From an uncultured archaeon (GTDB lineage: Archaea > Asgardarchaeota > Jordiarchaeia > Jordiarchaeales > Jordiarchaeaceae), in NCBI GenBank assembly GCA_964510585.1, contig CAZECW010000004.1, positions 3,606-67,605 on the forward strand: a stretch of 64,000 bases of DNA, read 5' to 3'. Shown piece by piece: positions 1 to 64,000 of this stretch (the first letter of the stretch is position 1; each line of letters starts with the position of its first letter). A model generated the notes under the pieces. That model saw nothing but the letters and a program-made list of their open reading frames with translations. It searched no databases and was not told the DNA's origin. Made by a program: the position numbers and the translations under genes.

Positions 1-10
1 TAATGCAGCG

Positions 11-43928: not shown

Positions 43929-44144
43929 TGAAGTTTAACCCCTCTTAGTAGGTTATGAAGTTCTTTCAATTAAATTGACAAAATTTATAGTTAAAAAAAC
44001 TTACTACTTTAATTGTCTTCCTAAAAAGGATTCCTTACTTCGAAAAATAAGGAAACACTCTGCATGTTTAAAACATAGATTTCTCAGAAACACATCGCAC
44101 ATTTTAATTCCTAAACCAGTTATTATTGTTGGAGAGGTTGTAAG

Positions 44145-45740: not shown

Positions 45741-45784
45741 AGGACAAATAGTGTAGAGGCAGCATTTATTTTTGGGGTGTTAGC

Positions 45785-46864: not shown

Positions 46865-47427
46865 TCACTAACAAGAATTAGTTCCAATTAAGATTAGTAT
46901 TGATAGAAGAAGCGGGAGTAAAATTACTCAGAAGGCTCCTCCCATTATTTTTTTCTGCTACATTTAGAGGCTGTGGCAGGTTTCAACTTAAACATACACT
47001 TTTTAAAGCAATAGCCTGAAAAATGAAAATTATAAGCGGTGCCCCTACCAAGAAAAAGGGGAATGGTGAGCTAGTAAGGTTGAGTAAAAGATAACATTTT
47101 TTCATGGTGGAAACGTGGCAATTTTTGAAGAATACGAGAGTTGAGATGGGGACTTACAAAGGACAATTAAAAGAAGCTAGAATTTGTATAAGAAAAAATT
47201 AAAACCAGAAGGAGGCAGAGTAATTAAGCTAAAGCCAAATATTCCCAGGAGTAAAGTAAACTAGTCTTGATAGAAAAAAGATTGTAAAACTAATCTTCCA
47301 ATTCGGAAAGTCTATTGCTTGAGTTTTAAAAAATAATTAATATTATAAATGTGTAAATCCCAAAGAATTAAAACAAAAATAGAAAAAGTTGCCTGAAAAC
47401 AAGCAATAATAATAGGAGGATATCCAG

Positions 47428-48282
47428 ATGACAAGGAAAGAAGCCGTGTTTGTACCTATAGGCGTTTCCAAAGAAGAAGTTGAGGAGTTCTTACCGGTAG
47501 AAATAGGTATCCTTGGTGGAACAGGAAACTATGACCCCGCAATATTTGAGAAACCCAAAGAAATTAAGGTGTACACGCCTTACGGAGCTCCATCAGACAA
47601 TGTCATTATTGGATTGGTGAAGGGGCGTAAAGTGGCTTTCCTAGCAAGACATGGTAGGCACCACTCAATACCGCCCCACCAGATTAACTACAGGGCTAAT
47701 ATCTGGGCATTCAAAAGCCTCGGAGTTACAAGAATCTTTTCCCCTGCTGCCTGTGGAAGCTTGCAACCAGAAACAATTAAGCCGGGAGAGTTCGTGATTG
47801 CCACGCAGATTTTTGATAGAACCTTTGGACAGAGGAAGGACACCTTCTTTGAGGGGGGAGTTGTGGGCCATGTGGAGTTCGCAGACCCCTTCTGCCCTGA
47901 GCTAAGGAAAATAGTCATTGACACTGCCCACGAGTTAGGTCTCAAAATACATGAGGAGGGTACCTATGTTTGCATAAATGGTCCAAGGTTCAGCACTAGA
48001 GCGGAAAGTCTCTTCTACAAGAGCCAGGGATTTTCAGTGGTGGGGATGACCTGTTACCCAGAATGTGCTCTGGCGAAAGAGGCGGAAATTTGTATGGTTA
48101 ACATTTCGATGCCCACCGATGTAGACGTTTATGGCATAGTGCCTGTTAACGCAGCAGCGGTGGCGAAGAGTATGAGAGAGAACATAGCCAATGTAAGAAA
48201 ATTATTATATACGGCTATAGAGCGAGTGCCAAAGGAACGAAAGTGTAAATGTAGCAGAGTTCTAGATCTTGCATTGTACTAA
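47428..48282 (+). CDS. mtnP: 5'-methylthioadenosine (purine nucleoside) phosphorylase.
   Basis: IGILGGTG N-terminus, FSTRAES, VGMT motifs. 284 aa. Confidence 0.85.
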   Translation: MTRKEAVFVPIGVSKEEVEEFLPVEIGILGGTGNYDPAIFEKPKEIKVYTPYGAPSDNVIIGLVKGRKVAFLARHGRHHSIPPHQINYRANIWAFKSLGVTRIFSPAACGSLQPETIKPGEFVIATQIFDRTFGQRKDTFFEGGVVGHVEFADPFCPELRKIVIDTAHELGLKIHEEGTYVCINGPRFSTRAESLFYKSQGFSVVGMTCYPECALAKEAEICMVNISMPTDVDVYGIVPVNAAAVAKSMRENIANVRKLLYTAIERVPKERKCKCSRVLDLALY

Positions 48283-48756
48283 TAAGATAAATATTGTAAA
48301 GAGCTCCTTTCCCCAAATTACTTAGATTTATTTTTAAAACATACACCTTTTTAGAAAACGGCTGTTTTAAATATGGTTCAGCAATTAAGCCAATGGTTTA
48401 CAGAATCGTTGGCGAGATAGGTCCCCGATTTTTGGGAGGACGCCAAAATTTGATGATTCTCTAGTTTCCCGGTTAACGACTAATTCTTGACCTTACAAGA
48501 ATGTTGAATAGAAAGGCTCTCAACTTTAGTCGCAGTGGGTGTCAACTTTTTCAAGATGTAATTTTCGGCGCTCATCTGCTTACATAGGACTTAATCATTT
48601 TAATATTATTTTTGTATATTTGTTATGGTTTTATTATATTTATTTTTTATAATACATATTGTTATTGTCTTTTTCCTTTTATAATTTTTTGACAAAGGTT
48701 TAAAGCTATGGATGGCTAATAGGTAACTACACATAATATCTGAGAGGTGTATCTTT

Positions 48757-49812
48757 TTGTCGATAAAAAGCCCTACCGCAGATGATGTTTTCAAAAAGTG
48801 GCTGGAGCGCGCGGACTTGGGTAAACTTGAGAAGGCGTTTTCAGTCAAGCACGTCAAGTTTGAAAGATCAAATGTTTCTGCCTCGGAGTCTGTTAAAAAC
48901 GTGGAGAAACATGCGGTATTTTTCTTCTACTCTAAAATAGAACCCTCTATTGGTAAGGAAGCTGAAAAAAAGTTAGTAGACATTGATGAGCTGAGAAAAG
49001 TGACCTTTTATGACTTTGGAAACAAACAAGTAGACTTGACCGAGTGGAAGGACAAGAAGCTCGTTCCTTTATACTCCTCCATCAAGGAGATTAGTTGCAG
49101 TGAGTGTAATGGTAAGGGATTCATCGCCTGTGACAAGTGTAAAGGTTCAGGGACATTGGAATGCAAGAAGTGCAAAGGAACGGGAAGCCTCACCTGCAAC
49201 GCTTGTAAAGGAGAAAAGAAACTTTACCTAAATTTAAAGGTTATAACAGCAGAGGGTAAGAAGACAGATATAGAAATGCCTTATAACTGCGATTTATGCG
49301 GGGGAGTTGGAACAATATATTGTGACAATTGCGCTGGCACTGGTAAAATCGACTGCGACAAGTGTCATGGAGGAACCAAAAACCCCTGCAAGAAGTGCAA
49401 AGCCACAGGTACACTATTTGAGTATACCATCGGTCCTGTGCCATTCAAGCCCGCGGTTATCCCTAAACTATTCTTCAGACCAGAATTTGAAAAGTACTTG
49501 GGAAAATTGATAGATAAAGAATTTGCCAACATTGAGGGGATAGTCATTAGGAACTATGAAAACCTATCAGAAAAGGAACTCACGCCACAGTTGGGATTCT
49601 TCAACAAAGAGGTCGAAGACAAAATGAAAAAGGCTAGGGACACTTTTAAAGAGTTAGAGAAAAAGGCGGCTAAGGGCGGCGAAAAACCAGAATACCCAAT
49701 ATATGTTTATCCACTGCTTAAACTCGACGTGGAATCACCTAGAGGTAAGAAATTCACCATTTTCAGTATAGGAACTGAACGCGGCTACATCGTAACTGAT
49801 TATGGATTTTAA
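48757..49812 (+). CDS. Hypothetical protein with two tandem DnaJ-type (CxxCxGxG)x4 zinc-finger modules.
   Basis: Module 1: CSECNGKG…CDKCKGSG…CKKCKGTG…CNACKG. Module 2: CDLCGGVG…CDNCAGTG…CDKCHGG…CKKCKATG. Confidence 0.5.
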   Translation: MSIKSPTADDVFKKWLERADLGKLEKAFSVKHVKFERSNVSASESVKNVEKHAVFFFYSKIEPSIGKEAEKKLVDIDELRKVTFYDFGNKQVDLTEWKDKKLVPLYSSIKEISCSECNGKGFIACDKCKGSGTLECKKCKGTGSLTCNACKGEKKLYLNLKVITAEGKKTDIEMPYNCDLCGGVGTIYCDNCAGTGKIDCDKCHGGTKNPCKKCKATGTLFEYTIGPVPFKPAVIPKLFFRPEFEKYLGKLIDKEFANIEGIVIRNYENLSEKELTPQLGFFNKEVEDKMKKARDTFKELEKKAAKGGEKPEYPIYVYPLLKLDVESPRGKKFTIFSIGTERGYIVTDYGF

Positions 49813-49843
49813 AAAGGCAATCTCACTCCCCTAGCAGGGGCTT

Positions 49844-51493
49844 TTACTTTTTGGAGTATACAATCTCTCCGCCCACTATGGTCATTTCCACCTTTATTTC
49901 ACTTATTCTGTTGGCTGGTACATTTAAGGGGTCGTCTGAAAGTACCACTAAATCTGCAAGTTTACCTGTCTCAATTGAACCCTTTATTTTTTCTTCAAAA
50001 GAAGCATAGGCTGCACCCAAAGTATACATTCTAATCGCCTGCTCCACTGATACCCTCTGCTCAGGAATGAAGGTGTAGTTGGAGGCTACCTGTCTTAAAA
50101 CTGCAGCCTGTATTCCCAGCAATGGATCCATAAGCTCTACTGGGCAATCAGACCCTGCTGCTAGTATGATTCCCTCCTCCAACAACTTCTTGAAGGGATA
50201 GACGTATTTGGCTCTCTTTTCTCCTACACGGTCAAGCATCCACCGTCCGTCAGAGACAATAAATGGAGGCTGAACAGAGACAACCACTCCTAATCTTTTC
50301 ATTCGCTGTATTAAATCTTCATTTAAAACTGATGCGTGCTCAATGCGGTGGCGATGGTCTTTTTTTGGTTTCTCCCTTAAGGCTTCCTCTAAAGCGTCTA
50401 AAGCTACTGTAACCGCTCTATCACCTATGCAGTGTATTGCCAACTGGAAACCTGCCAGATGAGCCTTCTTGACTATTTCACGGAGCTTCGCTTCATCGTA
50501 AATCAGGATTCCTCGATTTCCAGGGTCGTCGCTAAAAGGTTCGAGCATTGCTGCGGTGTGTCCTCCAAGACTACCATCCAGAATAATCTTTATCGCTCCA
50601 ATTTTTAATTGGTGGTTTCCGAACCCCGTGTAAAAGCCAAGGCTCATTATACTAGACATATAAGCTTCAGGAATTTGGAGATACACTCTTAGCGGAAGTT
50701 CTTCCCGCATCAGCAATGTTTGGAAAGCTCTTCCCTGGAAATCTTGAGCTTGATCCAGCAGGGGCATACAGTGTATTGAGGTTATTCCTTTGGTTACAGC
50801 CTCTTTGCAGGCAAGTTTCAAAGCTGATACGTAGTCTTCGTCTCCTAAGGATACAAGGTTGAGTATCATAAACCCTGCAGATTCACGCATTATACCTGTG
50901 GGCTCATTGGTTTCCGGATCTTTATCGATTTTTCCTCCGGGAGGAGATTCTGTTTCCGCAGTTATTTTTGCCAGTTCTAAGGCCTTGCTATTGACACAAC
51001 TGATATGGCCGCAAATACGCATAAGAGTAACTGGATTATTGGGAGCCGCTTGATCCAGATCCCATCTTGTGGGGAGCCGTTTCTCGGCTAGAATTGAGTC
51101 ATCCCAACCATGCCCCACTATCCACGCTCCCCTAGATTTTCTTTGAGCTTCTTTTCTTACCTTTTCCTTAATCTCTTTGATCGATTTCGCTCCTCTCAAA
51201 TCCAACATGTTTAGCATAGCTCCGAAACCCAAGATGTGTATGTGGCAGTCTGTAAATCCGGGGAGAACCGTCTTACCCTTAAGATTAACAATTTTAACCT
51301 TGTTACCAAGAAGGGATTTCATCTCCTCACTGGTGCCGACGCCAATAATTTTCCCGTCGCGGATAGCAACCGCCTCAGCCCTGGGTTTATTCGGATCCAA
51401 AGTTATAATATTACCATTCACCAAACAAAGACCTGAACGCTCAAAATTTTTAGGATCCATATAATTAAACCTCCTTTCATATACCGCCAACAA
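49844..51493 (-). CDS. Amidohydrolase-3 family metal-dependent hydrolase.
   Basis: 549 aa. GFTDCHIHI metal site. C-terminal amidohydrolase_3 architecture. Confidence 0.7.
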   Translation of the reverse strand: MLAVYERRFNYMDPKNFERSGLCLVNGNIITLDPNKPRAEAVAIRDGKIIGVGTSEEMKSLLGNKVKIVNLKGKTVLPGFTDCHIHILGFGAMLNMLDLRGAKSIKEIKEKVRKEAQRKSRGAWIVGHGWDDSILAEKRLPTRWDLDQAAPNNPVTLMRICGHISCVNSKALELAKITAETESPPGGKIDKDPETNEPTGIMRESAGFMILNLVSLGDEDYVSALKLACKEAVTKGITSIHCMPLLDQAQDFQGRAFQTLLMREELPLRVYLQIPEAYMSSIMSLGFYTGFGNHQLKIGAIKIILDGSLGGHTAAMLEPFSDDPGNRGILIYDEAKLREIVKKAHLAGFQLAIHCIGDRAVTVALDALEEALREKPKKDHRHRIEHASVLNEDLIQRMKRLGVVVSVQPPFIVSDGRWMLDRVGEKRAKYVYPFKKLLEEGIILAAGSDCPVELMDPLLGIQAAVLRQVASNYTFIPEQRVSVEQAIRMYTLGAAYASFEEKIKGSIETGKLADLVVLSDDPLNVPANRISEIKVEMTIVGGEIVYSKK

Positions 51494-51532
51494 TTATTCG
51501 ATAAAACGATTATTCTATTTGGAATAAATTTT

Positions 51533-52897
51533 TCAGATTTCTGCATAGTTATAGAGAAAAGAGGCCACGTATTTTTCGAAGTCTTTTATTCCATCAACCA
51601 TGAGATACTCATTAGGTGCATGTGCTCTACCGCCGTGCCCTGGACCGCTCATTATGAATTTCATGTTAAACGGTGGTTTGGTGAAAAGGTAGAAGGGGGC
51701 GCTTCCAGGTAACATTGGCATCACAACCGGTTCGTAGTTGAGATCCTTGAATGTTTTTATTGCTGCTTGGCTGATTTTGTCTTTGACTGAAACTTTCACC
51801 CATTCGTAGGCACCTAGAACTCGCACCTCAATGTCCTCGAAGCCTCGCTTCTTCAAGTGAGTCTTAACTCTATCAATGACCTCGCCGGTAGTCATGTTTG
51901 GAACCAGTCTAATATCAATCTTAACGGTTGCCTTAGCAGGAGTAATGGTCTTTGTTCCAGGCCCCGTCCACCCACTAATTATTCCGTCAATGTTGATGGG
52001 TGACGGCTTAAAGATCAAGTTTCTAGCCATCGCCTTAGGATTCTCACCGCGATAATTCTCAACCTGGTAGCTTGCGGTCATAGCCTTAACCAGCAGTTCG
52101 GAATACTTGTCTACCAGCTCCAAATCCTCAGGAGAAGGGGGCTCAACATTATCATAGAATCCCTCAATCAAAACCTCATCTTGTCCACGCATACTGTTCA
52201 AAGCCCAAATCAGGCGCCAAACAGGGTTAGGGAGAATATTAGCTTGGCTTGAATGAACATCTAAAGGATTTGTTTTACACTCCAGTTCCATGTATACGAT
52301 GCCCTTAAGGCCAAGAAGCAGAGCTGGAGGGGCTCCCGGAACCGCTTGGCTTGGAATCCACATACCCATAGCTTCGCATTGCTTCAACTCGCTCTCCCTC
52401 TTTTTAGCCCATTCTGGCAGGTGAATACTGGCTTGCTCTTCCTCACCCTCCACTCCAAAAATTAAATTGAATGGTAAATCTCCAGCGACTTCCAGAATAG
52501 ATTGCAGAGCGTTAAGAGTAGCCATAAATGGGCCCTTACTGTTTATGGCGCCCCTCGCTATTATGCGGTTATCAATAATTTTGGCTTCAAATGGTGGTGA
52601 CGCCCATTCGTTCAGAGGTTCCACGGGCTGAGTATCATACATTCCATATATGAACATCCAGCGATTGCTAGTTTTGGATTTGAGTTTCCCAAAGACTACA
52701 GGATAGCCCGAGGTGCTATCGATTGTGGATTCTGCGCCCAGCATCTCTTTTAGGTAGTCACGTGTCATTTCTGCGGTTTCCTGCATGCCTTCCCCTGTTT
52801 GGGAAATGCTTGGTTGCCTCAAGTATTCCTGTATTCTTTTAATGTGGTCGTCAAAGTGTTCATCTATGTGCTTGTGAATCTTTTCGATTTCAGGCAT
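51533..52897 (-). CDS. M20-family metallopeptidase (ArgE/DapE/ACY1-like).
   Basis: 454 aa. HxD…D…EE…H metal-ligand pattern. Dimerisation-domain insert. Confidence 0.7.
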   Translation of the reverse strand: MPEIEKIHKHIDEHFDDHIKRIQEYLRQPSISQTGEGMQETAEMTRDYLKEMLGAESTIDSTSGYPVVFGKLKSKTSNRWMFIYGMYDTQPVEPLNEWASPPFEAKIIDNRIIARGAINSKGPFMATLNALQSILEVAGDLPFNLIFGVEGEEEQASIHLPEWAKKRESELKQCEAMGMWIPSQAVPGAPPALLLGLKGIVYMELECKTNPLDVHSSQANILPNPVWRLIWALNSMRGQDEVLIEGFYDNVEPPSPEDLELVDKYSELLVKAMTASYQVENYRGENPKAMARNLIFKPSPINIDGIISGWTGPGTKTITPAKATVKIDIRLVPNMTTGEVIDRVKTHLKKRGFEDIEVRVLGAYEWVKVSVKDKISQAAIKTFKDLNYEPVVMPMLPGSAPFYLFTKPPFNMKFIMSGPGHGGRAHAPNEYLMVDGIKDFEKYVASFLYNYAEI

Positions 52898-52958
52898 TCA
52901 ATTCTCCTCCACATAAATAAAAACCTAAACCAGTTGGGATTTATCTTTTTTCTAATTT

Positions 52959-53294
52959 TTATTTTACATTTCTTATGTATGCTACGCCAAGAGGGGTCAA
53001 GTCCACCACATTTCCTTTTACAGTGATGAACAAGATATCTTTGAGGAATTGTATATGGAAACTTAATGTTTTTTCATCCATTTTTAGGAGGGTTGCTATT
53101 TCTTGTACGGTTAGCGCTTTTTCTTTGAGCATTGTTAGAATTTCTCTTCTGATTGGATTTTGCATGGCTCGGAGGGCTCTTCTATGTGCCTCAGTTGGGT
53201 CTTTTACCGAGCCGCTTTCATCTAATTTTCGTTTCCAAGCTTTAAGTTCTTCGTCACTCATTTCTCTACAATTTTTCGTTTCCAAACTGTTCAC
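52959..53294 (-). CDS. Small winged-HTH (ArsR-like) transcriptional regulator, paralog A.
   Basis: NPIRREILTMLKEKALTVQEIATLL HTH. 111 aa. Confidence 0.55.
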   Translation of the reverse strand: MNSLETKNCREMSDEELKAWKRKLDESGSVKDPTEAHRRALRAMQNPIRREILTMLKEKALTVQEIATLLKMDEKTLSFHIQFLKDILFITVKGNVVDLTPLGVAYIRNVK

Positions 53295-53365
53295 CCTGCT
53301 TCATCATACTTATCTCAAGAAGCATCAAGTGGTCTTGGTCTCCTCCTCCATTTGTTTGGTGCTTT

Positions 53366-53707
53366 TCATCTTATTACGTTTTTTAGGTATACAACTCCGA
53401 AAGGTGTCAGATCCACCATGTTCCCTTCTATGGTTATGTAATATGTTAGCATGAGATATTGAAGATGGAACTGCACAATTTTTTCATCCAGTTTCAAACT
53501 CTCAGATATCTCCTGTATGGACAAAGCCTTATCTTTAAGAAGCATCAAGATTTCTCTCCTGGCGGGGTTTTGCATAGCTAGAAGAGCTCTCCTATGCCAC
53601 TCTGTCGAATTTCCCTCTATGTTCCTCTCTAACACGTTCATTCTCCAATCTTCGATTTCCTCATCGCTCATTTCTCTACAATCCTTGTTCTGCAAAACCA
53701 GCACCAC
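53366..53707 (-). CDS. Small winged-HTH (ArsR-like) transcriptional regulator, paralog B.
   Basis: About 45% identical to paralog A (CREMSDEE, AMQNPxRREIL, VDLTPxGVxYxxNV shared). Confidence 0.55.
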   Translation of the reverse strand: MVLVLQNKDCREMSDEEIEDWRMNVLERNIEGNSTEWHRRALLAMQNPARREILMLLKDKALSIQEISESLKLDEKIVQFHLQYLMLTYYITIEGNMVDLTPFGVVYLKNVIR

Positions 53708-53936
53708 TTATGGAATTTACATAGTACAACAGTGAACTAACATTAAATTGTTTCGCATCCAAATCATGTTTTCCTCACCAACCAAAATACTCAAAATCCA
53801 ATGTGGGAATATCACCTAGCTAAAGTAGGTTTTAAGTTTGAAAAAAGATTTATAGCCCCTAGAAAACATTGGGAACTCTGATATTCTACTTGGCGATTCG
53901 ATTCATCAAAATCCTAAAAATATAGTTGGTGTCTTT

Positions 53937-55244
53937 ATGGAGCTGGATTTGTCCAGAGAAGAATTGTTAAACCTGCAAGAAAAGAAATTCAAGCGCACAA
54001 TGGAACTGGCATTTAAAACACCACTATACAGCCAAAAATTCAAAGAAGCAGGACTAAGCCTGGCAGACATCACAAGCTTAAAAGATTTAGAAAAGTTACC
54101 ATTCTCCAGCAAACAAGACATCGTCAAGGACTATAGAGCAGCAATCGCAGACCACAGTAATTTAGCAGTGTTCCACACCACCTCAGGAACATCAGGAATC
54201 CCCACAGTTGTAGGCTACACCAACAATGATGTCGAAACACAAACCATCAATGAAGCCCGAAACCTGCTAACAGCAGGATTCAAAAAGGGAGACATAATAA
54301 TTAATACTACACCCTATGGCATGTTTTTTGCGGGCGTTTGTATTCATGACGCTATAAGGAGAATTGGGGCTGTTGTGGTTCCTTCTGGTAAATTGGCGAG
54401 CAGTAGGCAGCAGGTGGATATGATTCATTTTTATCGCCCCACCGGAGTTATTGGCATTGCCCAGTTTATTTTGAAGTGGGCTTCCCTGTATGAGGATATG
54501 TTTGGAGAGGATCCTCGGGAAAGTTCTCTTAATAGAGGGTATGCTCTTGGGGAGCCGGTTCCAGAGGGTAAAAGAAAACGCATAGAGGATGTTTGGGATA
54601 TTGACCTTAGAATTGGGTATGGTTTGACGGAGGTAGGCAGTGGGGGAGAGTGCGAAGAGAAAAATGGTGTGCATTGGCAAGAGGATCTCTCCTTGGTGGA
54701 GGTTATCGATCCAGACAATAATGAGAGGGTTGCGGATGGGGAAAGAGGGGAGCTAGTTTATACTACTATTTCTAGGACTGGCACTTTGGCCATTAGGTTT
54801 TGTTCAAGGGATAGTTCCTTTATAGTGAGTGGTGACTGCTCCTGCGGTCGTATAACGCGGAGAGTTATGCCTCCAGAGTTTCGTTTGGATAGTTTGATTA
54901 AGATTAAGGGAACCCTTACCAGTCCTTTCGCCATTGATTCAGCGATTTTCAGTTACGAGGGTGTTAGAGATTACCTGGTGGTGGTGAGCGAAGATTCATC
55001 GGGTCTTGATCGCGTGGATGTTTATATTGATTCAGACTCCTTCACGCCTAAACAAATTGAGAGTTTATATGATCGATTTGGTGGTAAGGTTTGGTTTAAC
55101 CCCTCATCAGTAAAAATAGTGGAGAAGGATAGTATTCCAGTAATTGGTAGGAAGGGGAAGAAAATTATTGACCTTAGAACCGAAGCGGACTATGGGGATG
55201 AACTTAAAACCTTTCTGGAAAAGTATGGGGAATCCAACCAATAA
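53937..55244 (+). CDS. Phenylacetate-CoA ligase / coenzyme F390 synthetase family adenylating enzyme.
   Basis: FHTTSGTSGIPT adenylate-forming core. 435 aa. PaaK-like architecture. Confidence 0.75.
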   Translation: MELDLSREELLNLQEKKFKRTMELAFKTPLYSQKFKEAGLSLADITSLKDLEKLPFSSKQDIVKDYRAAIADHSNLAVFHTTSGTSGIPTVVGYTNNDVETQTINEARNLLTAGFKKGDIIINTTPYGMFFAGVCIHDAIRRIGAVVVPSGKLASSRQQVDMIHFYRPTGVIGIAQFILKWASLYEDMFGEDPRESSLNRGYALGEPVPEGKRKRIEDVWDIDLRIGYGLTEVGSGGECEEKNGVHWQEDLSLVEVIDPDNNERVADGERGELVYTTISRTGTLAIRFCSRDSSFIVSGDCSCGRITRRVMPPEFRLDSLIKIKGTLTSPFAIDSAIFSYEGVRDYLVVVSEDSSGLDRVDVYIDSDSFTPKQIESLYDRFGGKVWFNPSSVKIVEKDSIPVIGRKGKKIIDLRTEADYGDELKTFLEKYGESNQ

Positions 55245-55285
55245 TTCTCTGACATGTTTTCAGGAGACTTTGGTCATTTCTTCTG

Positions 55286-56572
55286 TTACTCCCTTACGAT
55301 TTCTGGGACTCTGATTCCCTGTTTTTCCAGTCTTTCGTTTACAATCTGTTTCATTTTCTCGTTGGTCAGGGTTTTAATTTGGTGGGGAGCATAGACCCCG
55401 ATGTCGGTTATTATTAGGTCGATTAGCTTGGGCGGAGTGACGTCAAAGGCGGGATTGTATATTACTATTTCTCCTTTTCCCGGAATTCTTTTGTTAGTGA
55501 TAATGTTTCTTGGGGGCCACTCTTTTAGGCTTTTTTCGCTGATTATCTTGTTTTTCCGCTTGTCTTCTGCCTCCAGTTTGTATAGGTATGTTACTTCATC
55601 AATACTGCGTTCCTCTATGGGTATTTCGCTTCCCTTCTTGGTTTCCAGGTCAATGGTGCTGTACGAGGTAGCGTAGTAAAAGTCCACATTTCCGTAAAGG
55701 GCTGCTATTCTCGCGATGTCGGCGGATCCAATTTTGTTTGCTACTGATCCATCCCTGGCTACTCTATCTACTCCAAGGAGAACCTTGTTCACCCCGAAGC
55801 GTTCGAAGGAGGATGATATCATATTGTCTGTCACAATTATTATGGGCACTTGGGCCCTGTTTAGCTCCCATACTGTGAGTTTGTATCCTTGGCTACGGGG
55901 GCGTGTTTCTTTTGAAACCATAACTATGTCTTTTCCCTCAACGTATGCTTCTTCAAGCATACCCAAAGCATGGCCGCCGTAACTTGAGGACATGCTTCCA
56001 CCATTGCAGTGAGTCATAATCACATCTCCGTCCTCTATGTACTGTTTTCCGTCCTGCCTCAGGTACCAGCTCAGTATAAGGTCCGCGGCCAAAAAGTAGT
56101 CTGCAGCTTCCCTTACTCCCTCAACAGCCTCTTCAACCTTCCCACTTTTGTTGAGAGATTTCTCCGCAGTCTTAAGACATAAATCCGTTGCCCACTTTAG
56201 GGGAGAAGCGGTTGGCCTAGTACTATTTAAGAAATCGGCAGCTTCCCTCAACTTTTTCATGAAAACATCTTTTTTCTCTTTTTTAAACTCTAAAGCCGCC
56301 AGCAACATCCCATAGCCTGCAGCGCATCCTATTGCCTGACTGCCTCTAACAATCATTCCCTTTATGCCCGGAATGCCCGCCTCGCGGTAATCCCTAGTTT
56401 TCCACACTGTAAACTCATAGGGAAGCTTTGTCTGGTCCAGCAGAACCAGCGTTTCCTCCTCCGATTCATAGTGGACTGTAAGAGGAATATTTGTTTTATT
56501 ATGAACATAAGCTCCACTCTCAGCGTCGAATTCCAGTCCTATCTTTTTGAAGACCTTTTGAATATCAACCAT
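55286..56572 (-). CDS. eIF-2B-like / MtnA-family isomerase, second and longer paralog.
   Basis: LDQTKLPYEF…GSQAIGCAAGYGM and GVDRVARDGSVANKIGS. 428 aa. Confidence 0.7.
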   Translation of the reverse strand: MVDIQKVFKKIGLEFDAESGAYVHNKTNIPLTVHYESEEETLVLLDQTKLPYEFTVWKTRDYREAGIPGIKGMIVRGSQAIGCAAGYGMLLAALEFKKEKKDVFMKKLREAADFLNSTRPTASPLKWATDLCLKTAEKSLNKSGKVEEAVEGVREAADYFLAADLILSWYLRQDGKQYIEDGDVIMTHCNGGSMSSSYGGHALGMLEEAYVEGKDIVMVSKETRPRSQGYKLTVWELNRAQVPIIIVTDNMISSSFERFGVNKVLLGVDRVARDGSVANKIGSADIARIAALYGNVDFYYATSYSTIDLETKKGSEIPIEERSIDEVTYLYKLEAEDKRKNKIISEKSLKEWPPRNIITNKRIPGKGEIVIYNPAFDVTPPKLIDLIITDIGVYAPHQIKTLTNEKMKQIVNERLEKQGIRVPEIVRE

Positions 56573-56728
56573 ATGCTTGCAACTCCGTAAAATTTGATAA
56601 CGTTCATAATTTAGGTAACTATTTGAATTTTATGTGTTCAGATACAGAAAAATCCGAAGCTTAAATAAATTTAGTGCCACGCAGCTGAAACGAAACTAAA
56701 ATCGGGAAATAGTTACAGAATTAAGTTT

Positions 56729-57679
56729 CTAGCCCTTCACTTTTTTATGGAATTCCTCTAGTTCTTTTTTGTTTGGGCTTCCTCTTGTTTCACTTCTAGT
56801 TGCTTTAAAAGCCCCCGCCAGGTTTGCCCTTTGCAAGGACTCAATGAGAGAATATCCTTGAGCCAGAGACGCCGCCAAAACTCCATGGAACGCGTCTCCA
56901 CACCCCACCGTATTAACCACCTTGAAGCCATACTTCTGAAGTGGAATGCCCCTAATTATTATGCTTTGCTCATCTCTTGGGTCAATCAACTGGGATCCCT
57001 CAGCCCCCATTTTTTTAATCACCTTTAAATTCTTGTTAATGGGAGAAAGACGTTTCTTCACTTCTTCCGGTTCACTGGCGCCAGTTAGGTTTTCCACCTC
57101 CACAGCGTTCATCAAAAGAATATCCACAAATTTTAAAATGTCTTTTAGTGACTCGTATCCCTTCACACAGTGTATCCCTGGATCCCAAATGGTGATAGCC
57201 CCAAATTTTTTTCCAAGCTCCACAACCTTCAAAACCACGGGAAGCGGTGGATCAACTACCGCCAACACCTTGGCTTGACGTATCAACGCTAACCTTTTCA
57301 CTTCCTCCACATCCTCTGGCTTAATTTCGTGATTCGCCCCAAAAAGAGTGTTAATAAAGTTCTCACCCTTAGAATCTATCACAATATAGGCTTGACCAGA
57401 CTCCACACCCCTAACTGTAATAATTCCACTTATATCGACCCCCTCACCCTCCAAAACCTTTTTCTGCATCTCAGCTATCTGGTCATCACCCAAACCGCCA
57501 ATGAACGCCACCTCACCCGGATCCATCAATCTTGCAGCCGCCACAGCCACATTGGCGCCCTTCCCCCCAGGAATGCGTGTTATCCTTTTCACCGGCACCT
57601 CCTCACCTATCTTGGGAAATCTTTCCACAAAGAGATTAATATCATAGTTTATAGCCCCAAAACTCACCACTTTGGCCAT
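56729..57679 (-). CDS. Ribokinase-like PfkB-family sugar kinase.
   Basis: GGKGANVAVAAARL and C-terminal GCGDAFHGVLAASL. The start is taken at the internal ATG (MAKVVSFG). Confidence 0.8.
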   Translation of the reverse strand: MAKVVSFGAINYDINLFVERFPKIGEEVPVKRITRIPGGKGANVAVAAARLMDPGEVAFIGGLGDDQIAEMQKKVLEGEGVDISGIITVRGVESGQAYIVIDSKGENFINTLFGANHEIKPEDVEEVKRLALIRQAKVLAVVDPPLPVVLKVVELGKKFGAITIWDPGIHCVKGYESLKDILKFVDILLMNAVEVENLTGASEPEEVKKRLSPINKNLKVIKKMGAEGSQLIDPRDEQSIIIRGIPLQKYGFKVVNTVGCGDAFHGVLAASLAQGYSLIESLQRANLAGAFKATRSETRGSPNKKELEEFHKKVKG

Positions 57680-57816
57680 AGGAACCACTTCAAACCCTTT
57701 ATATGTTTTACCAAAAAATTTCAAGGTTTTTATTGGTAATTTCACATTCCTTCATAAAAGCATTACCCCAAAATCAAATGAAAAACAAAATAATCCCAAA
57801 AAAGGCTACAAACTCT

Positions 57817-58560
57817 TTAAATTATATCCAAAATTTCTGAAATATTATTCACCGTATAGTCCGGCTTCTCATCATCACAAGTTGGCTCCCTCTCAGCGTG
57901 TAAATCCTTCCTCACACGTATAGTAATCGCCCCAATGGATTTCGCCCAAGCAAAATCATTCCTGGGATCATCACCAACAACGAAAATTCTCTTACCAGTA
58001 ACGGGTTGACCCAAATCCTCCTCCAAACACTGAATAAGCCTCTCAAGAAACTCGGGAGCTGGCTTACATACACCTAAACGCTCCGAAGAAAACAAGAAGC
58101 GATAGTGCTTCCCGGGCTCCAGCCCGAAAAGTTTCATCTTCAACTCAGTTTCCTCGTCCTCATTATTGGTGGCAATCACAACAATCGACTTCCTATTCAG
58201 CATCTCAAGCGTTTTATGAGTATCCGGATACGGCCTTGCACGAGCAACAAAATGCTTCCAATAAAAATCGTGAATCTTGTCAAGAAACTCTGAAGCAAAC
58301 CTAATCCCATTATTCTGCTGCACCTTCTCAAGAAATAACCTCAACCTAATCCTCTTATTATGCCTCCTCGGCTTAAGAGGATACAATTCATAATGCTCCT
58401 TCTTAGCCTGCCTGTAAAACTGCTCCATCTTTTCCAAGCTAACCCTCGAACCACAACTCCTACTAGCCTCCTGACAAGTCAACTCAAAAACCTTCCTAAA
58501 CGCCTCTTCCTCAGGAATAAGCGACAAACCCAAAGTACCATCCATATCAAAAATAACCAC
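57817..58560 (-). CDS. HAD-superfamily hydrolase.
   Basis: FDMDGTLG motif I with a GTG start at 58560, VVGDDPRNDFAWAKSIGA motif IV. The long upstream extension of the ORF is an artefact of the stop-free A/C tract. Confidence 0.7.
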   Translation of the reverse strand: MVIFDMDGTLGLSLIPEEEAFRKVFELTCQEASRSCGSRVSLEKMEQFYRQAKKEHYELYPLKPRRHNKRIRLRLFLEKVQQNNGIRFASEFLDKIHDFYWKHFVARARPYPDTHKTLEMLNRKSIVVIATNNEDEETELKMKLFGLEPGKHYRFLFSSERLGVCKPAPEFLERLIQCLEEDLGQPVTGKRIFVVGDDPRNDFAWAKSIGAITIRVRKDLHAEREPTCDDEKPDYTVNNISEILDII

Positions 58561-58599
58561 AGTATCCCCGTCCGACTGAAAAACGCCAGTTCCCTTCTT

Positions 58600-59700
58600 C
58601 GAGAAAACCACCGTAAACACCCTAAACAATTCTACAAGGCACCAAACACAAAAAAGACACAAAAAAATTAGCAAAATATCCTTATAAGCATTTGTATACC
58701 AAAAACCAAACCCGACCCACACCCCACAAAAACCCAAACACACAACTACGCTACAAGACCACAAAACAACCAAAAGCACGAAAACATAACAAGTACACAT
58801 AACCAAACAACACAAGAAAAATGAAACACAACACACCCCCCAACAAACTGAACCACACAAAACAAGAACCCAAAACACCCAATTTCCAACCCCAAAAAGA
58901 AACAATACAAAACCCCCAAAAACCAACACTCTCCTCCCAAAACAAAAAACATCAAACACACCACCAAAAACAAACTGCCAAAAACACCAATCACCAAAAA
59001 ACAGTAAAAAACAAAAAAATAATCACCAACACCAAAACACCACAAAAACCAAAAATAAGGAAAAACCATTGGGAGACACCGTGTACCCTAGGATACTAAC
59101 ACATGACATCCCAGGATAGAGCGACACGCCCTTGCCTCAGCCATGCTCTCTCATACCAGGGAAGCACCGGCGTCTCCCAAAGCCGCTGTAGTCTACCTGG
59201 GTAGGCTCCCCAATCATAGAAAGGCAACCGCCACACTCCTGAAGAAGCCCGTCGAGTAGACATTATCACGGCAACAAATGTAGCCCAACCCCTTGCCCTA
59301 AACTTCATCCCAACTAAAAAAGAAAGTCAGCCAGTCCTCAGAGGTGGGCCAACAATAACAAAAACAAAACAAACTAATGAAACTTTCGGAAAACAAAACA
59401 ACCAACCAGACACAACCCACCAAAAACAAAACACACAAAAACCACGAAAAACCCACCACAAAAAGTTTAGACAATAAAAACCCCGCCCCAAACCCGAAAA
59501 GCGAAAACAAAAACACACCACCACAAAAAACTAGGCAGCATCCCCGCTCCATTCACAGGCAGCCCCATACGAAAAAGGCGCCCCAACCCATCCCAGCCCA
59601 CCTCCTTTAGTTATTCTTCTGGGTCTACCCCCTAACCTGTTAGCAGAATTGGCTCCCCACACTTAACCAACTTATCACCTGACATTCACGCAACCCCTCA
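58600..59700. repeat. Low-complexity tract composed almost only of A and C on the + strand, nearly devoid of stop codons in any frame, interrupted by a GC-rich unique island (about 59070-59330).
   Basis: Long runs such as caaaacaaccaaaagcacgaaaacataacaag… and accaaaaacaaaacacacaaaaaccacgaaaaaccc. The island contains the stem GGGAGACACCG / CGGCGTCTCCC. Confidence 0.7.
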
Positions 59701-59848
59701 TAAAGCCTTGCCTCAGAAAAAGGGAAAAAGATATAGGAAGGGAAGAAAAAATAAGTTTTATACCTCCCCTGGGGGCAAAGGAAGGGAAGACACAGCCAAC
59801 CATGCAACGAAGCAAATAAATAAAAAAGTTGAAGAAGAGGAAACAAAA

Positions 59849-61570
59849 ATGACACAACCAAAACAAAAATGGAAAAAAGAATTCGACAGCATTGTTGTGT
59901 GTTGTTTTGTTGGCGACGTTGACGGAGACGGAAAAAACGAAATAATAACAGGAAACAAGGACGGAACACTTATGGTCTTAAGCGGAGAAGGAGAACAAAA
60001 ATGGAAAAAAAAATTCGACGACAGTGTTTTGTGCTGTTTTGTTGGCGACGTTGACGGAGACGGAAAAAACGAAATAATAACAGGAAGCGAGGACAGTACA
60101 CTTAGGGTCTTCAGCGGAGAAGGAGAAAAAAAATGGAAAAAAGTATTCGGCGGCAGTGTTGTGTGCTGTTTTGTTGGTGATGTTGACGGAGACGGAAAAA
60201 ACGAAGTAGTAGCAGGAAGCGGGGACAGGACACTTAGGGTCTTCAGCGGAGAAGGAGAACAAAAATGGGAAAAAGTATTCTTGGACGTTGTTGAGTGTTG
60301 TTCTGTTGGCGACGTTGACGGAGACGGAAAAAACGAAATAATAATATATGGCGGGGACGGAAGACTTAGGGTTTTCAGCAGAGATGGAGAACAAAAATGG
60401 AAAAAAAAATTAGGCGGTGTTCGGTGTTGTTTTGTTGGCGACGTTGACGGAGACGGAAAAAACGAAATAATAACAGGAAGCGAGGACAGTACACTTAGGG
60501 TCTTCAGCGGAGATGGAGAACAAAAATGGAAAAAAGTATTCGGCGGCGAGGTCTGGTTTTGTTCTGTTGGTGATGTTGACGGAGACGGAAAAAACGAAGT
60601 AGTAGCAGGAAGCAAGGACGGAACACTTATGGTCTTAAGCGGAGATGGAGAACAAAAATGGAAAAAGGTATTCGGCGGCGAGGTCTGGTTTTGTTCTGTT
60701 GGCGACGTTGACCAAGACGGAAAAAACGAAATAATAACAGGAAACAGAGACAAGGCACTTATGGTATTAAGCGGAGATGGAGAACAAAAATGGAAAAAAG
60801 AATTCGACAGCGAGGTTTTGTGTTGTGTTGTTGGCGACGTTGACGGAGACGGAAAAAACGAAATAATAACAGGAAACAAGGACGGAAAACTTATGGTCTT
60901 AAGCGGAGAGGGAAAACTAAAATGGCAAAAAGAATTCGTGGACGATGTTCGGTTTTGTTTTGTTGGCGACGTTGACGGAGACGGAAAAAACGAAATAATA
61001 ATAGGAAACGAGGACGGAAAACTTAGGGTTTTCAGCGGAGAGGGAGAACTAAAATTGAAAAAAGTATTCTTCGACGTTGTTGAGTGTTGTTCTGTTGGCG
61101 ACGTTGACGGAGACGGAAAAAACGAAATAATAATAGGAAACAGGGATCAGACACTTAGGGTATTCAGCAGAGAAGGAGAAAAAAAATGGAAAAAAGAATT
61201 CGGCGACGTTGTTTTGTGTTGTTCTGTTGGCGACGTTGACGGAGACGGAAAAAACGAAATAATAATAGGAAACGGGAACCAACTTATGGTTTTAAGCGGA
61301 GATGGAGAACAAAAATGGGAAGAAGTATTCTACAACAGTGTTTTGTGTTGTTTTGTTGATGATGTTGACGGAGACGGAAAAAACGAAGTAGTAGCAGGAA
61401 GCGAGGATGGAACACTTATAGTCTTCAGCGGAGAGGGAAAACTAAAATGGCAAAAAGAATTCGGCGGCGAGGTTCGGTGTTGTTTTGTTGGTGATGCTGA
61501 CGGAGACGGAAAAAACGAGGTGGTAGCAGGAAGCAGTTTCGGGACGCTTGAGGTTTTTGTTTTTCCCTAG
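59849..61570 (+). CDS. FG-GAP/integrin-alpha-like beta-propeller repeat protein with 13 tandem repeats of about 42 aa and no signal peptide.
   Basis: Repeat consensus VxCCFVGDVDGDGKNEIITGxxDGTLxVxSGEGEQKWKKxF, with a DxDxDG Ca-binding-like loop. The start is taken at the internal ATG (MTQPKQKW). Confidence 0.7.
   Translation: MTQPKQKWKKEFDSIVVCCFVGDVDGDGKNEIITGNKDGTLMVLSGEGEQKWKKKFDDSVLCCFVGDVDGDGKNEIITGSEDSTLRVFSGEGEKKWKKVFGGSVVCCFVGDVDGDGKNEVVAGSGDRTLRVFSGEGEQKWEKVFLDVVECCSVGDVDGDGKNEIIIYGGDGRLRVFSRDGEQKWKKKLGGVRCCFVGDVDGDGKNEIITGSEDSTLRVFSGDGEQKWKKVFGGEVWFCSVGDVDGDGKNEVVAGSKDGTLMVLSGDGEQKWKKVFGGEVWFCSVGDVDQDGKNEIITGNRDKALMVLSGDGEQKWKKEFDSEVLCCVVGDVDGDGKNEIITGNKDGKLMVLSGEGKLKWQKEFVDDVRFCFVGDVDGDGKNEIIIGNEDGKLRVFSGEGELKLKKVFFDVVECCSVGDVDGDGKNEIIIGNRDQTLRVFSREGEKKWKKEFGDVVLCCSVGDVDGDGKNEIIIGNGNQLMVLSGDGEQKWEEVFYNSVLCCFVDDVDGDGKNEVVAGSEDGTLIVFSGEGKLKWQKEFGGEVRCCFVGDADGDGKNEVVAGSSFGTLEVFVFP
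59880..61540 (+). repeat. Intragenic tandem DNA repeats of about 126 bp, 13 copies, highly similar at the nucleotide level.
   Basis: The same stretch gttggcgacgttgacggagacggaaaaaacgaaataataacaggaa recurs many times. Confidence 0.85.
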
Positions 61571-62335
61571 GTTTAATCTCGCGTTCTTTTTTCTCTTCCC
61601 ATGGGGGTAAACTCCATCCCTACATAGGTCTGGGATTCGAGGTGGCGGGGCTTTTATCCCTGCTGCCCCAGGTGGACCAGTTTTACCACGAGCGCATCTG
61701 GCCCGCGGCAAAATTCGCCCTGGGAGCCTCATGGGTGCAGAAGCAATAATACAAAGCGCAATAGTTAACACCATAGTGATAAACGGCTTAAGCGCAGTGG
61801 AGAACGCCTGGGAGAACCAGGTGTTTGGAGACCCCTGGTACCAGGACGCCAAAATAGACTTCACACCTCTGCTGGAATTTCTGCCCCCGGACACCTGGAG
61901 CCTGCAGGACTACCTAGACAGCTGGACAACAAAATACATATACGGAATGTGGTGGTTCTAAAAGTTATACTTCACTCATGGGTGGGTGTTTGAGTTTTTG
62001 GTGGATGGGGTTACGTAACTGTTGCATGAAACCAGGTATTTCTGTAGCGTATACGGTCTTCCAAAAAAAAGGGGGACAGGGAATATTGGCTCTGACAATC
62101 ACCCGGACGTGTGGCACACACAGGAGCCGAATGGGTGAACAGGCCCCTCCCTAAGAATGTGGGGAGAGGGCTGGAGGAAACGGTGAAGCCCTTTACCCAA
62201 TGGAACCATGTTCCCCCCCAGATGCGGGCGGATGCAGTCCTTTGTGCGGAGAGGCAGGCTGTACCCTGAGATGAAGCTGGGGATGAAGCCCGAAGATGCT
62301 GTTGAAAAACTTCTCTGTTTTGTAGGAGGGGTAGT

Positions 62336-63313
62336 TTAGGTTGAGGGGCGAAGGGTTGGTGTTCGGGAATGTGCAAGGGATGTTCTCCCTGTCTGTTTGA
62401 GTTTTAGTCCTGCAGCTACCCTTCTCTTTATGTTTATGGCGGTGGCTGTGTGAAGCTGTTGGGCTTCCACCTTGCTTAGACCACGATATCGCGCCTTTCC
62501 CGCTCCATGTCTCTTTGCCTCGGAGATTGTTCCCTCAACTGGGCAGCGCCGCTTAAGCTTCTTCTGGTACTTTACGCTCTTCTCCTTCTTCCGGTACTTG
62601 TCTATTATGGGGGACAGCATCACCTGGATCTCAAGGCTTCTTCCCTCTTTGGATTTTGTGCACAAGCCGTAGTTTGGGCAGTCTAGGCACTGCTTTCCGA
62701 AGTGAAAGATTAAACACTCGTCAAGCCCCTCTCCCTTCCTCTTTACTCTAATGCTTCTCTTCCCCGCAGGGCAGAAGGCAACTTCTCTCTTAACGTTCAC
62801 CTTGAAGTCCTTCCTCTGGAACCCTTCCTTCCCGCGGGTGTCAGACTTCACACGGCCCACGATTTCAACTCCTATCGTCCTGCAGAGCACTATCCCCTTA
62901 GCGCTCGTGTATCCCATGTCCGTTGTAAGTTCATTTGCATCAATCTTCTCCTTGGCGTCTTTGGCTATTTCGTACAGCGCTTCGTAGTCGGGTCTGTCGG
63001 CGGTGTTGAGCATGCAGGTAACTATGAACGGTGTCTCATTTTTCCCGGGGATGGTTTCGCAGATGTGGGCCTGGTATCCGGGGTTTATCTTCTCTCCCCT
63101 TTTTCCCACCTTGGCGTCGGGGTCGTGTGGGCTGACCATTTTCCTCTTTATCTTGTCCTTAACCTCCACCTCGCCTCCTTCCTTTAGGTCGTATACCTCA
63201 TTGAAGGCTTGCTCTAGAAGTTGGTACTCATCTAGATTTTCAAGATTGTTTTTCCGGCAGGTTTCGAGAATCCGGTGGGCGTGTTCGCCGTATTCTTTGA
63301 GCCGTTTTTTCAT
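62336..63313 (-). mobile_element. IS5/IS1182-family DDE transposase.
   Basis: HDPDAKVGKRG (the DPDAR-type motif) and C-terminal SEAKRHGAGKARYRGLSKVEAQQLHTATAINIKR, characteristic of this family. GC-rich relative to the host. Confidence 0.7.
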
Positions 63314-63423
63314 GGTCTCCCGGCTCTTGGCGAAGGGCTATGCATTACCCATAACTTTTAAGGGTGTTGGAGGGGTATCTGAGTGTGCATATAATGTTCA
63401 CAATTAAGCTTAGGTGAAAAGCG

Positions 63424-64000
63424 ATGTTACCATGGGTTGAACAAGAGCTTCAAGGCGTAGATCTGGGCGATGCCCGTTTAAACAGCCGCCTGATGAAGCT
63501 GGTTAATGATTTTGCCACCAATCCGAATGCCAGCATCCCTCAAGCCTGCGGAGAATGGAGCGCCACAAAGGCCGCCTACCGTTTTTTCGACTCAGAACGG
63601 ATCAAACCAGAGGATATCCGCGCCGCTCACATCCAAAGCACCATCCAACGAGTGAAGAAACATGAAACCATCCTCCTTGTACAGGACACCACCAACCTAG
63701 ATTTCACCCACCATCCCCACACCAAAAACATAGGATACCTCGACAATGTCTTCCAGAAAGGGTTAAAGGTCCACTCCACCATAGCAGTAACACCAGATGG
63801 AGTCCCCCTAGGACTAATCTGCCAAGAGGTTTGGGTCCGCGACCCCCCAGAACCTGGGGAAGAGACACCAGAGAGACAAACGCGACACCAAAGACAAGGA
63901 AAGCCAGCGCTGGCTAACAGCTCTGCAAAACAGTCAGGACGCTGTGCCAGAGGAGGTTCACATAATCATCGTGGCCGACAGGGAGGCAGACATCTACGAC
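63424..64000 (+). mobile_element. IS4-family (Tn5-like) transposase, running off the window end, with an apparent frameshift near 63885.
   Basis: Frame 1 gives MLPWVEQELQG…LGDARLNSRLMKL…ACGEWSATKAAYRFF…LLVQDTTNLDF…GLKVHSTIAVTPDGVPLGLICQEVWVRD. The continuation KESQRWLTALQ…VHIIIVADREADIYD is in a different frame. Confidence 0.7.

Follow-up and report, generated by a model that had tools for sequence, protein, structure and literature searches.

Highly repetitive beta-propellers were described by Pereira and Lupas (2022) as proteins with 2 to 47 similar consecutive blades, the global forms of which reach the protein termini (PMC9218822). Synonymous differences between such blades are scarce, blade number differs among close relatives, and examples of the FG-GAP/alpha-integrin type occur in archaea and bacteria; the wider VCBS/FG-GAP supercluster is defined by a DxDxDG cation motif (PMC9218822). 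Here, we analyse a gene at positions 59849 to 61570 of a 64,000-nucleotide (nt) stretch from an uncultured archaeon (GenBank assembly GCA_964510585.1, contig CAZECW010000004.1, positions 3,606 to 67,605), referred to below as the window. The gene belongs to this published class and represents no new kind of system or mechanism. Its product is probably a cytoplasmic, stand-alone propeller of the FG-GAP/PQQ-like type (VCBS supercluster) that was amplified recently, is still recombining, likely forms two rings, and may act as a scaffold.

A tandem array with a period of 132 bp (12.6 copies, 84% matches in Tandem Repeats Finder) occupies positions 59862-61518 of an open reading frame (ORF) that ends at 61570 on the plus strand and, from its first ATG at 59849, encodes 573 amino acids. 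Cutting this product at a K-W-K-K anchor delimits 13 units (Table 1), 11 of them nominally of the 132-bp, 44-residue type, with units 5 and 11 (43 residues) and unit 13 (41 residues) as the exceptions. An earlier note on this DNA had also counted 13 units, a number borne out by this split and by the tiling of two contigs described below. It had given the period as 126 bp (42 residues) instead of 132 bp (44 residues), and it overstated the similarity of the repeats in calling them almost identical. Mean DNA identity between units is 82% (range 66-94%), median protein identity is 68% (range 50-86%), and the longest exact internal repeat is 86 nt. A 27-nt core (GACGTTGACGGAGACGGAAAAAACGAA), which encodes DVDGDGKNE, occurs 13 times at three or fewer mismatches, versus no occurrence in shuffled sequences. 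The array spans residue 7 to the C-terminus with no divergent blades alongside, and the TAG stop is followed by GTT TAA, so that read-through would append only two residues. The features by which Pereira and Lupas delimit the class are found here, including consecutive blades above about 60% identity (13 blades with a median of 68%), an array that extends to the terminus, and the signature of recent amplification (the same codons in 12-13 of 13 units and a proportion of synonymous differences, pS, of 0.15). Identity is flat with unit lag (0.81-0.84), and neither a higher-order three-unit period (period 393 in Tandem Repeats Finder) nor the duplication of a seven-unit block is supported. A 373-residue antisense ORF (59758-60879) and other ORFs within the array are by-products of the repeats, as are matches to a sigma-70 promoter, which fell only on the repeat core (TTGACG...AATAAT) in nine units and are irrelevant in an archaeon.

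Profile searches and structure prediction agree on an FG-GAP-type beta-propeller, the fold that the earlier note had proposed, with structure prediction as a check. Pfam FG-GAP (PF01839) matches 13 stretches of the protein (170.8 bits against a cut-off of 22.1) and FG-GAP_3 (PF13517) matches 11 (173 bits against 26.9), both with E-values of about 1e-51, and the Pfam scan of the 573 residues returned no non-propeller domain. Scores for the PQQ-like family PF13570 (101.2 bits) and for BamB (TIGR03300, 75.4) lie under their respective cut-offs of 133 and 285.2, and NCBIfam yielded nothing above its cut-offs. The best sequence matches in the PDB are Cake10, Cake9, and Cake8, followed by Bagel8, Scone, the archaeal PQQ-like protein 3hxj, and propeller-containing kinases, with ITFG2 and BBS2 far behind. 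AlphaFold2 reached a predicted local distance difference test score (pLDDT) of 74.6 from the sequence without an alignment. With a 55-sequence alignment the pLDDT was 89 and the predicted template modelling score 0.63, and the model has 51 strands, four per unit. A Foldseek search against the PDB returned propellers alone (probability 1.00), among them Cake8/9/10 and tandem propellers. The term integrin-alpha-like, used in the earlier note, holds at the level of the repeat motif but not by sequence, where the closest solved structures are 3hxj and the derived Cake and Scone.

The protein also resembles ITFG2 of KICSTOR and the BBSome proteins BBS2, BBS7, and BBS9, in its predicted cytosolic location and in matches to Pfam families Itfg2, BBS2_Mid, BBS7, and PTHB1 and to PDB chains 9o5a_G and 6vbu_2. 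However, these matches are weaker than those to the archaeal PQQ-like type (E-values of 5e-9 and 5e-7 versus 1e-14 to 1e-29), and the accompanying BBS or ITFG2 domains are absent. Orthology to BBS2, BBS7, or ITFG2 was rejected, the matches being short, repeated, single-blade alignments (BBS2_Mid 4-30 of 108 positions, Itfg2 10-105 of 330). The sequence comparisons provide no evidence for a specific Asgard-eukaryote link via these propellers.

According to the predicted models, the 13 blades most likely close as a tandem double propeller (6+7 or 7+6) and not as a single 13-bladed ring. Full-length Foldseek template modelling scores of the alignment-based model to tandem 7+7 propellers are 0.58 (8i7o_P1), 0.53 (Gemin5), and 0.51 (2ymu). 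A D strand opens the chain and a C strand is its last, so that 1+3 'velcro' closure is possible, perhaps with the N-terminal KWKKEF strand completing blade 13. That N-terminal strand is built in the single-sequence model, but in the alignment-based model residues 1-16 are disordered. The 14-blade WRAP domain of Nostoc punctiforme Npun_R6612 (2ymu) is similar in that nearly all of the protein consists of consecutive high-identity blades reaching the termini. It also shares the traits of few synonymous differences between blades, a blade number above the single-ring norm with tandem rings, and copy number that varies among relatives. The present blades differ in being of FG-GAP/PQQ type, not WD40, and in sharing 68% amino acid identity, compared with only 10 substitutions across the 14 blades of Npun_R6612; the protein has no STAND ATPase or other domain, and its host is an Asgard archaeon. 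With 13 blades, the two rings cannot be equal, in contrast to the 7+7 arrangement of Npun_R6612. Cake and Scone were designed from 3hxj, and identical blades of that type close as 8- or 9-bladed rings, which suggests that ring size is plastic. The present protein resembles 3hxj and these designs in blade length (about 40-44 residues), and they provide the best solved-structure sequence matches (E-values of 2.7e-29 to 6e-14) and the best Foldseek E-values. It differs from them in that identity is only 20-28% and that every one of its blades carries the full DxDxDG loop.

That loop is kept throughout the array. All 13 units carry D-x-D-x-D-G-K-N-E, as DVDGDGKNE in 11, DVDQDGKNE in one, and DADGDGKNE in one, and D17, D19, D21, G22, and E25 are invariant. 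In the AlphaFold2 model, strands assigned by DSSP place the loop between strands A and B, the first two of the blade. The same loop position is the Ca2+-binding site of integrin alpha propellers, on the lower face; this correspondence suggests up to 13 Ca2+ or Mg2+ sites per chain. The D-A and B-C loops of propellers form the opposite, canonical ligand-binding face. Here, the most variable columns (7, 8, 9, 11, 31, 33, 34, and 36) are in or beside these two loops, and the variable residues may thus lie on the ligand-binding face. The earlier note had assigned both a loop of this kind and a CC pair to each unit; the loop is indeed universal, whereas CC is present in 10 of 13 units and replaced by FC in three. 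The protein carries 23 cysteines in all. F6-G7 occurs in six of 13 units (VFGG, EFGG, EFGD); there is no Gly-Ala-Pro, the equivalent position being (I/V)(T/A/I)G(N/S).

Most FG-GAP/VCBS proteins are exported, and the present one might likewise be an integrin- or adhesin-like surface protein, dependent on Ca2+, that leaves the cell by an unrecognised route. Its Ca-type loops and 23 cysteines would be at home outside the cell, and distant homologues with multi-pass membrane domains at the N-terminus (P0003, P0004, and P0006) point in the same direction. We consider this very improbable. No transmembrane segment or signal peptide is present in either the ATG-initiated form (573 residues) or a TTG-initiated form (620 residues), the maximum Kyte-Doolittle mean over 19 residues being 0.83, in agreement with the earlier note. 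Both starts give a hydrophilic N-terminus, and no open frame extends beyond the TTG on its 5' side. The lack of a hydrophobic segment with either start predicts a cytoplasmic location, and in the closest relatives, which have no transmembrane segments, the blades are joined to kinase, PCI, and HEAT domains of cytosolic type. Integrin propellers belong to exported membrane proteins and are single seven-bladed rings; their blades are divergent, and only three or four of them have Ca sites. The present protein shares with integrin alpha (PF01839) the 13 Pfam matches and the DxDxDGxxD/E loop between the first two blade strands. It differs in its 13 similar blades, all with the motif, and in having no export signal; the signal peptide or membrane anchor expected of an integrin-alpha-like surface protein is missing, which argues against such a protein.

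Gene callers chose the TTG start in contig L001 and the ATG in contig L002. We favour the ATG, because a relative in contig L055 begins in a similar way, right at the first strand (MRQTTLKWEMKF), and because an A/T-rich box (AAATAAATAAAAAA) precedes the ATG (Table 1). From its sequence, this box is a candidate archaeal TATA box for a leaderless or short-leader mRNA, and the TTG extension is probably non-coding 5' untranslated or promoter DNA.

The codons of the array point to recent common origin of the units. Conserved residues are encoded by an identical codon in 12-13 of 13 units, for example L35 by CTT, G22 by GGA, and D19 and D21 by GAC in all 13, with V15 (GTT) and C13 (TGT) as further cases. 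Codon usage in the genome is even, with each of the six Leu codons at 16-19%, GGA at 38%, and TGT at 47%. Codon bias is thus no explanation, and the units share recent ancestry or undergo homogenisation, as the earlier note had supposed. In pooled Nei-Gojobori comparisons of units 1-12, pS is 0.149 and the proportion of nonsynonymous differences (pN) is 0.163, a ratio of 1.09. The ratio is 0.19 in the cation (A-B) loop, 1.88 in the D-A loop, 2.2 in the nine most variable columns (chosen post hoc), and 0.69 in the other 35 columns; these values are descriptive only, since the unit pairs are not independent.

The number of units is supported by contigs from two different Joint Genome Institute metagenomes. 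L051 covers 57001-60765 (units 1-7) at 99.8% identity and L052 covers 60693-63337 (units 7-13) at 99.85%, neither with an indel in the array. The 73 nt by which they overlap, in unit 7, occur nowhere else (the closest other match contains eight mismatches), so that together they tile the whole array and support 13 units. A different structure is found in L001, a MEGAHIT contig (k141) with only five units, all in register. In this contig the leader runs into unit 8 by way of 27 shared nt, units 8 and 9 merge inside a 14-nt stretch common to both to give a hybrid at GGACGGAAAACTTAGGG, and units 10-13 come next, with 519 nt that match the window exactly. With a longest exact repeat of 86 nt, one would not expect a simple k-mer collapse at k = 141, and the five-unit allele may be real; such an allele also fits the proposal of the earlier note that the array is a substrate for repeat-number variation. 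The five units of L001, and the fact that L002, L051, L052, and L053 all break within the array, could instead indicate that assembly had expanded or collapsed the array to give 13 copies. This we regard as improbable, given that every unit can be distinguished (the nearest pair is 94% identical) and that L051 and L052 overlap, free of indels, in the unique unit 7.

Strain differences suggest exchange between units as well. Over 3765 nt, L051 and the window differ at seven positions, and the array contains six of them (Fisher p = 0.001); a cluster of these differences turns EVWFCS of unit 6 into EVRFCF, with an exact 20-nt match to unit 9. In L002, seven clustered substitutions change GGSVVCC of unit 3 to GGEVRFC. 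The differences in both contigs cluster in codons 9-14 and copy states present in other units, so that by sequence they look like gene-conversion tracts. The other two of the four strain contigs compared, L052 and L053, show no difference in the array. Overall, the array fits a recent amplification with ongoing intragenic recombination.

A similar pattern of variation characterises the WD40 repeats of the fungal HNWD/NOD-like receptor (NLR) genes het-e, het-d, and het-r, which have high nucleotide identity between repeats, unit deletions and hybrids formed by intragenic recombination, and variability focused at surface positions (PMC2873952). The propeller could by analogy be a variable recognition module, a fast-diversifying binding surface in which unit loss, gain, and conversion yield new specificities, such as the sensing of foreign elements. 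Consistent with this, the variable columns lie in the D-A and B-C loops, the nine most variable (picked post hoc) have a pN/pS of 2.2, the strain differences fall in those same columns and resemble conversions from other units, and the in-register five-unit allele contains a hybrid unit. The same types of rearrangement have been shown experimentally for HNWD genes (PMC2873952). However, HNWD proteins carry NACHT and HET domains and their recognition function is experimentally established, whereas the present propeller stands alone and would be at most a candidate for diversifying selection. The polypeptide has no NTPase, effector, or other non-propeller Pfam domain, so that the NACHT or NB-ARC plus effector of NLR/STAND proteins is absent, and no such combination was found among the neighbours scanned. 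No NLR or defence gene was detected by Pfam among the neighbours (the PADLOC defence library was not searched), two of the four strain contigs compared have no array difference, and the pN/pS values were calculated on few sites, with pairs that are not independent. We therefore think a recognition module unlikely. A diversifying cytosolic recognition surface, in which unequal crossing-over within the gene and conversion between blades would produce population-level variation in blade number and top-face loops, as a stand-alone functional analogue of the repeats of fungal and bacterial NLR-type immune receptors whose blade is also used in kinase and HEAT proteins of the lineage, is likewise a doubtful proposition.

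The window derives from a Jordarchaeia/Freyarchaeia archaeon. Its methionyl-tRNA synthetase is 94-96% identical to those of Candidatus Jordarchaeia/Freyarchaeota metagenome-assembled genomes and 82% identical to that of Ca. Freyarchaeum deiterrae. A gene of the EAP30/Vps36 family (ESCRT-II-like; 421-1155, plus strand), an Asgard hallmark, fits a Jordarchaeia host. Exact-sequence look-ups of the propeller protein with either start retrieved no record, a scan of 185,579 species representatives found no relative, and a literature search on Asgard archaea and FG-GAP proteins returned no paper. The closest homologues share the CCFVGDVDGDG blade at 51-71% identity but have other architectures. P0001 combines five blades with helical domains and a Ser/Thr kinase. 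The relative in L055 (8469-11545, from another metagenome) has six blades, a 40-residue linker, eight blades, a PCI-like domain, and a Ser/Thr kinase; a frameshift or overlap at 10001-10043 divides it between two called genes, and the same contig encodes a Vps4-like AAA ATPase. In P0002 (L056), HEAT repeats precede four blades in a propeller plus alpha-solenoid arrangement. None of these three has transmembrane segments. The more distant P0003, P0004, and P0006 have an N-terminal multi-pass membrane domain followed by about seven blades. Judged by these sequences, the blade is a lineage-specific module that is used also in cytosolic proteins of signalling type. It is mainly because close relatives employ the blade in such proteins (with Ser/Thr kinase, PCI-like, and HEAT domains) that a scaffold or binding role is proposed for the stand-alone propeller, for which it would be a putative function read from sequence.

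At this locus the gene appears to be young. Relatives with a PfkB orthologue 82-85% identical to that of the window have neither a blade gene nor an A/C tract upstream of the HAD gene. In Ca. Freyarchaeum deiterrae (L061, 5243-8328), a 23S rRNA gene lies directly upstream of a conserved RNA-like element and the HAD gene, and the same is probably true of L059 and L063. The window contains no rRNA, and the propeller gene and insertion sequence (IS) elements occupy that side instead. The position of the gene at a synteny break in an IS-rich patch is consistent with a young acquisition or rearrangement. It also raises the possibility that the array is a transient by-product without function, recently amplified in a region rich in IS elements and prone to rearrangement, and drifting toward decay, as has been proposed for many highly repetitive propellers. 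The overall pN/pS of 1.09, the presence of a 23S rRNA gene in place of the propeller gene in relatives at 82-85% orthologue identity, the adjoining nested IS elements, and the frequency of disrupted propellers in this class (PMC9218822) are all in line with such a fate. However, no break interrupts the 1.7-kb ORF, constraint on the cation loop is strong (pN/pS 0.19), the core residues do not vary, the gene is retained at 99.8% identity in contigs of several independent metagenomes, and relatives with the same blade are multi-domain proteins. A functionless by-product is, in our judgement, not a likely explanation.

The preferred explanation, a recently amplified cytoplasmic propeller, would have one 132-bp blade-coding unit multiplied in tandem and in register to 13 copies in the recent past, with unequal crossing-over and gene conversion between units still remodelling the array. 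Each 44-residue unit would form a four-stranded blade in which strands A and B are linked through the invariant DxDxDGxxE loop, and the whole would act as a cation-stabilised scaffold for binding proteins or ligands. Several points weigh against this account. The gene is known here from DNA alone, cation binding is deduced from the motif, and the number of blades per ring and the assignment of loops to faces depend on DSSP strand order and general propeller topology. The contig with the five-unit allele is a MEGAHIT assembly of short reads and could be a chimera. An overall pN/pS of about 1 is also compatible with relaxed constraint, and the genomic context offers no functional clue, the neighbours being a gene cluster of nucleoside/pentose-bisphosphate type and, on the opposite side, IS elements.

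Table 1 Features of the propeller gene (positions in the window) and of its blade (columns of the unit)
Feature	Position	Strand	Description
Optional TTG-initiated extension	59708..59848	+	47 codons, K/R-rich, hydrophilic; from the ORF listing
A/T-rich box	59814..59827	+	About 25-35 nt upstream of the ATG; read from the sequence
Propeller coding sequence	59849..61570	+	573 residues and TAG stop; six-residue N-terminus MTQPKQ, then solely 13 blade units; from ORF and translation, Pfam, AlphaFold2, and the start of the L055 relative
Blade unit 1	59867..59998	+	44 residues
Blade unit 2	59999..60130	+	44 residues; 94% DNA identity to unit 5; shares the longest exact repeat (86 nt)
Blade unit 3	60131..60262	+	44 residues; codon 9-12 patch differs in L002
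Blade unit 4	60263..60394	+	44 residues
Blade unit 5	60395..60523	+	43 residues
Blade unit 6	60524..60655	+	44 residues; codons 10-14 unit 9-like in L051 (20-nt exact donor-like match at 60947)
Blade unit 7	60656..60787	+	44 residues; unique DVDQDG marker; site of the L051/L052 overlap
Blade unit 8	60788..60919	+	44 residues; 93% identical to unit 1; 5' part of the L001 hybrid unit
Blade unit 9	60920..61051	+	44 residues; 3' part of the L001 hybrid unit
Blade unit 10	61052..61183	+	44 residues
Blade unit 11	61184..61312	+	43 residues
Blade unit 12	61313..61444	+	44 residues
Blade unit 13	61445..61567	+	41 residues; most divergent (66-78% DNA identity); three strands only, without the outer D strand
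Strand D	unit columns 44 to 5		DSSP of the AlphaFold2 model
D-A loop	unit columns 6-9		DSSP of the AlphaFold2 model
Strand A	unit columns 10-16		Includes CC; DSSP of the AlphaFold2 model
A-B loop	unit columns 17-24		DVDGDGKN; DSSP of the AlphaFold2 model
Strand B	unit columns 25-30		DSSP of the AlphaFold2 model
B-C loop	unit columns 31-33		DSSP of the AlphaFold2 model
Strand C	unit columns 34-38		DSSP of the AlphaFold2 model
C-D loop	unit columns 39-43		DSSP of the AlphaFold2 model

The unusual A/C-only DNA and mobile elements that the earlier note had reported beside the gene are both present. Tracts of A/C-only type occupy 58693-59070 (378 nt) and 59348-59533 (186 nt), the sole such tracts in the window, with an A+C content of 0.88-0.89 on the plus strand (A 56%, C 32%). 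They vary between strains by indels; at this locus they are absent in relatives at 82% identity and about 100 nt long in L065, and L063 has comparable tracts at other positions. Since A/C-only DNA cannot hold stop codons on either strand, it creates spurious ORFs. A 130-residue 'hydrophobic' N-terminal extension of the HAD gene (57817-58959) through the G/T tract, which cannot contain stops, was accordingly rejected as non-coding.

Between the two tracts lies a GC-rich segment of about 285 nt (59068-59352, minus strand). It is kept at 79-84% nucleotide identity in Jordarchaeia/Freyarchaeia loci L059, L061, L063, and L065, where it separates the 3' end of the 23S rRNA gene from the HAD gene. 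A consensus fold of the segment has 85 pairs, with 96% of cells paired versus about 43% with slid partners, and compensatory changes at eight pairs; the minus strand has a minimum free energy z-score of -3.5, the plus strand one of -0.8. Rfam gave no match to the window at the gathering threshold, nor to 58400-59900 at E-values up to 1, and no tRNAs were found in the window. The segment is a candidate for an unclassified structured RNA on the basis of its conservation and folding. A 70-residue ORF within it (59096-59308, minus strand) was rejected as coding, as 1-nt indels in relatives shift the frame.

Directly downstream of the propeller gene, a 76-residue ORF (61731-61961, plus strand), called in L001 and present in L052, has no Pfam or NCBIfam match. 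It is followed by an IS1182-family DDE transposase (62336-63313, minus strand) that lacks the N-terminal ~160 residues, the full 527-residue gene being present in L001. The N-terminus of a Tn5/IS4-type transposase begins at about 63300 on the plus strand (Pfam Tnp_DNA_bind, E-value 5e-25), and the window parts from L001 and L052 at 63337. The GC content of 62336-64000 is 0.51-0.52, compared with about 0.42 elsewhere, and this region probably holds nested IS elements. On the other side, a cluster of nucleoside/pentose-phosphate type (41383-57745), the gene order of which is conserved in relatives, encodes two IF-2B-family proteins (ribose-1,5-bisphosphate-isomerase-like), two PfkB kinases, and PNP_UDP_1, as well as two amidohydrolases and a HAD hydrolase weakly similar to ribulose-1,5-bisphosphate 5-phosphatase. 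Elsewhere in the window, a 1000-residue ORF (3662-6664, plus strand) has no match to a Pfam family at E-values up to 1e-4.

The gene thus provides a natural, well-resolved example of a propeller between amplification and differentiation, the 13 blades of which can be traced at the codon level, and the allelic evidence suggests both the loss of units and conversion from blade to blade. It adds an Asgard, FG-GAP/PQQ-type, and apparently cytosolic case to a class known mainly in bacteria and fungi. As the blade is near the template family of Cake and Scone, it could be used to test how blade number sets ring size.

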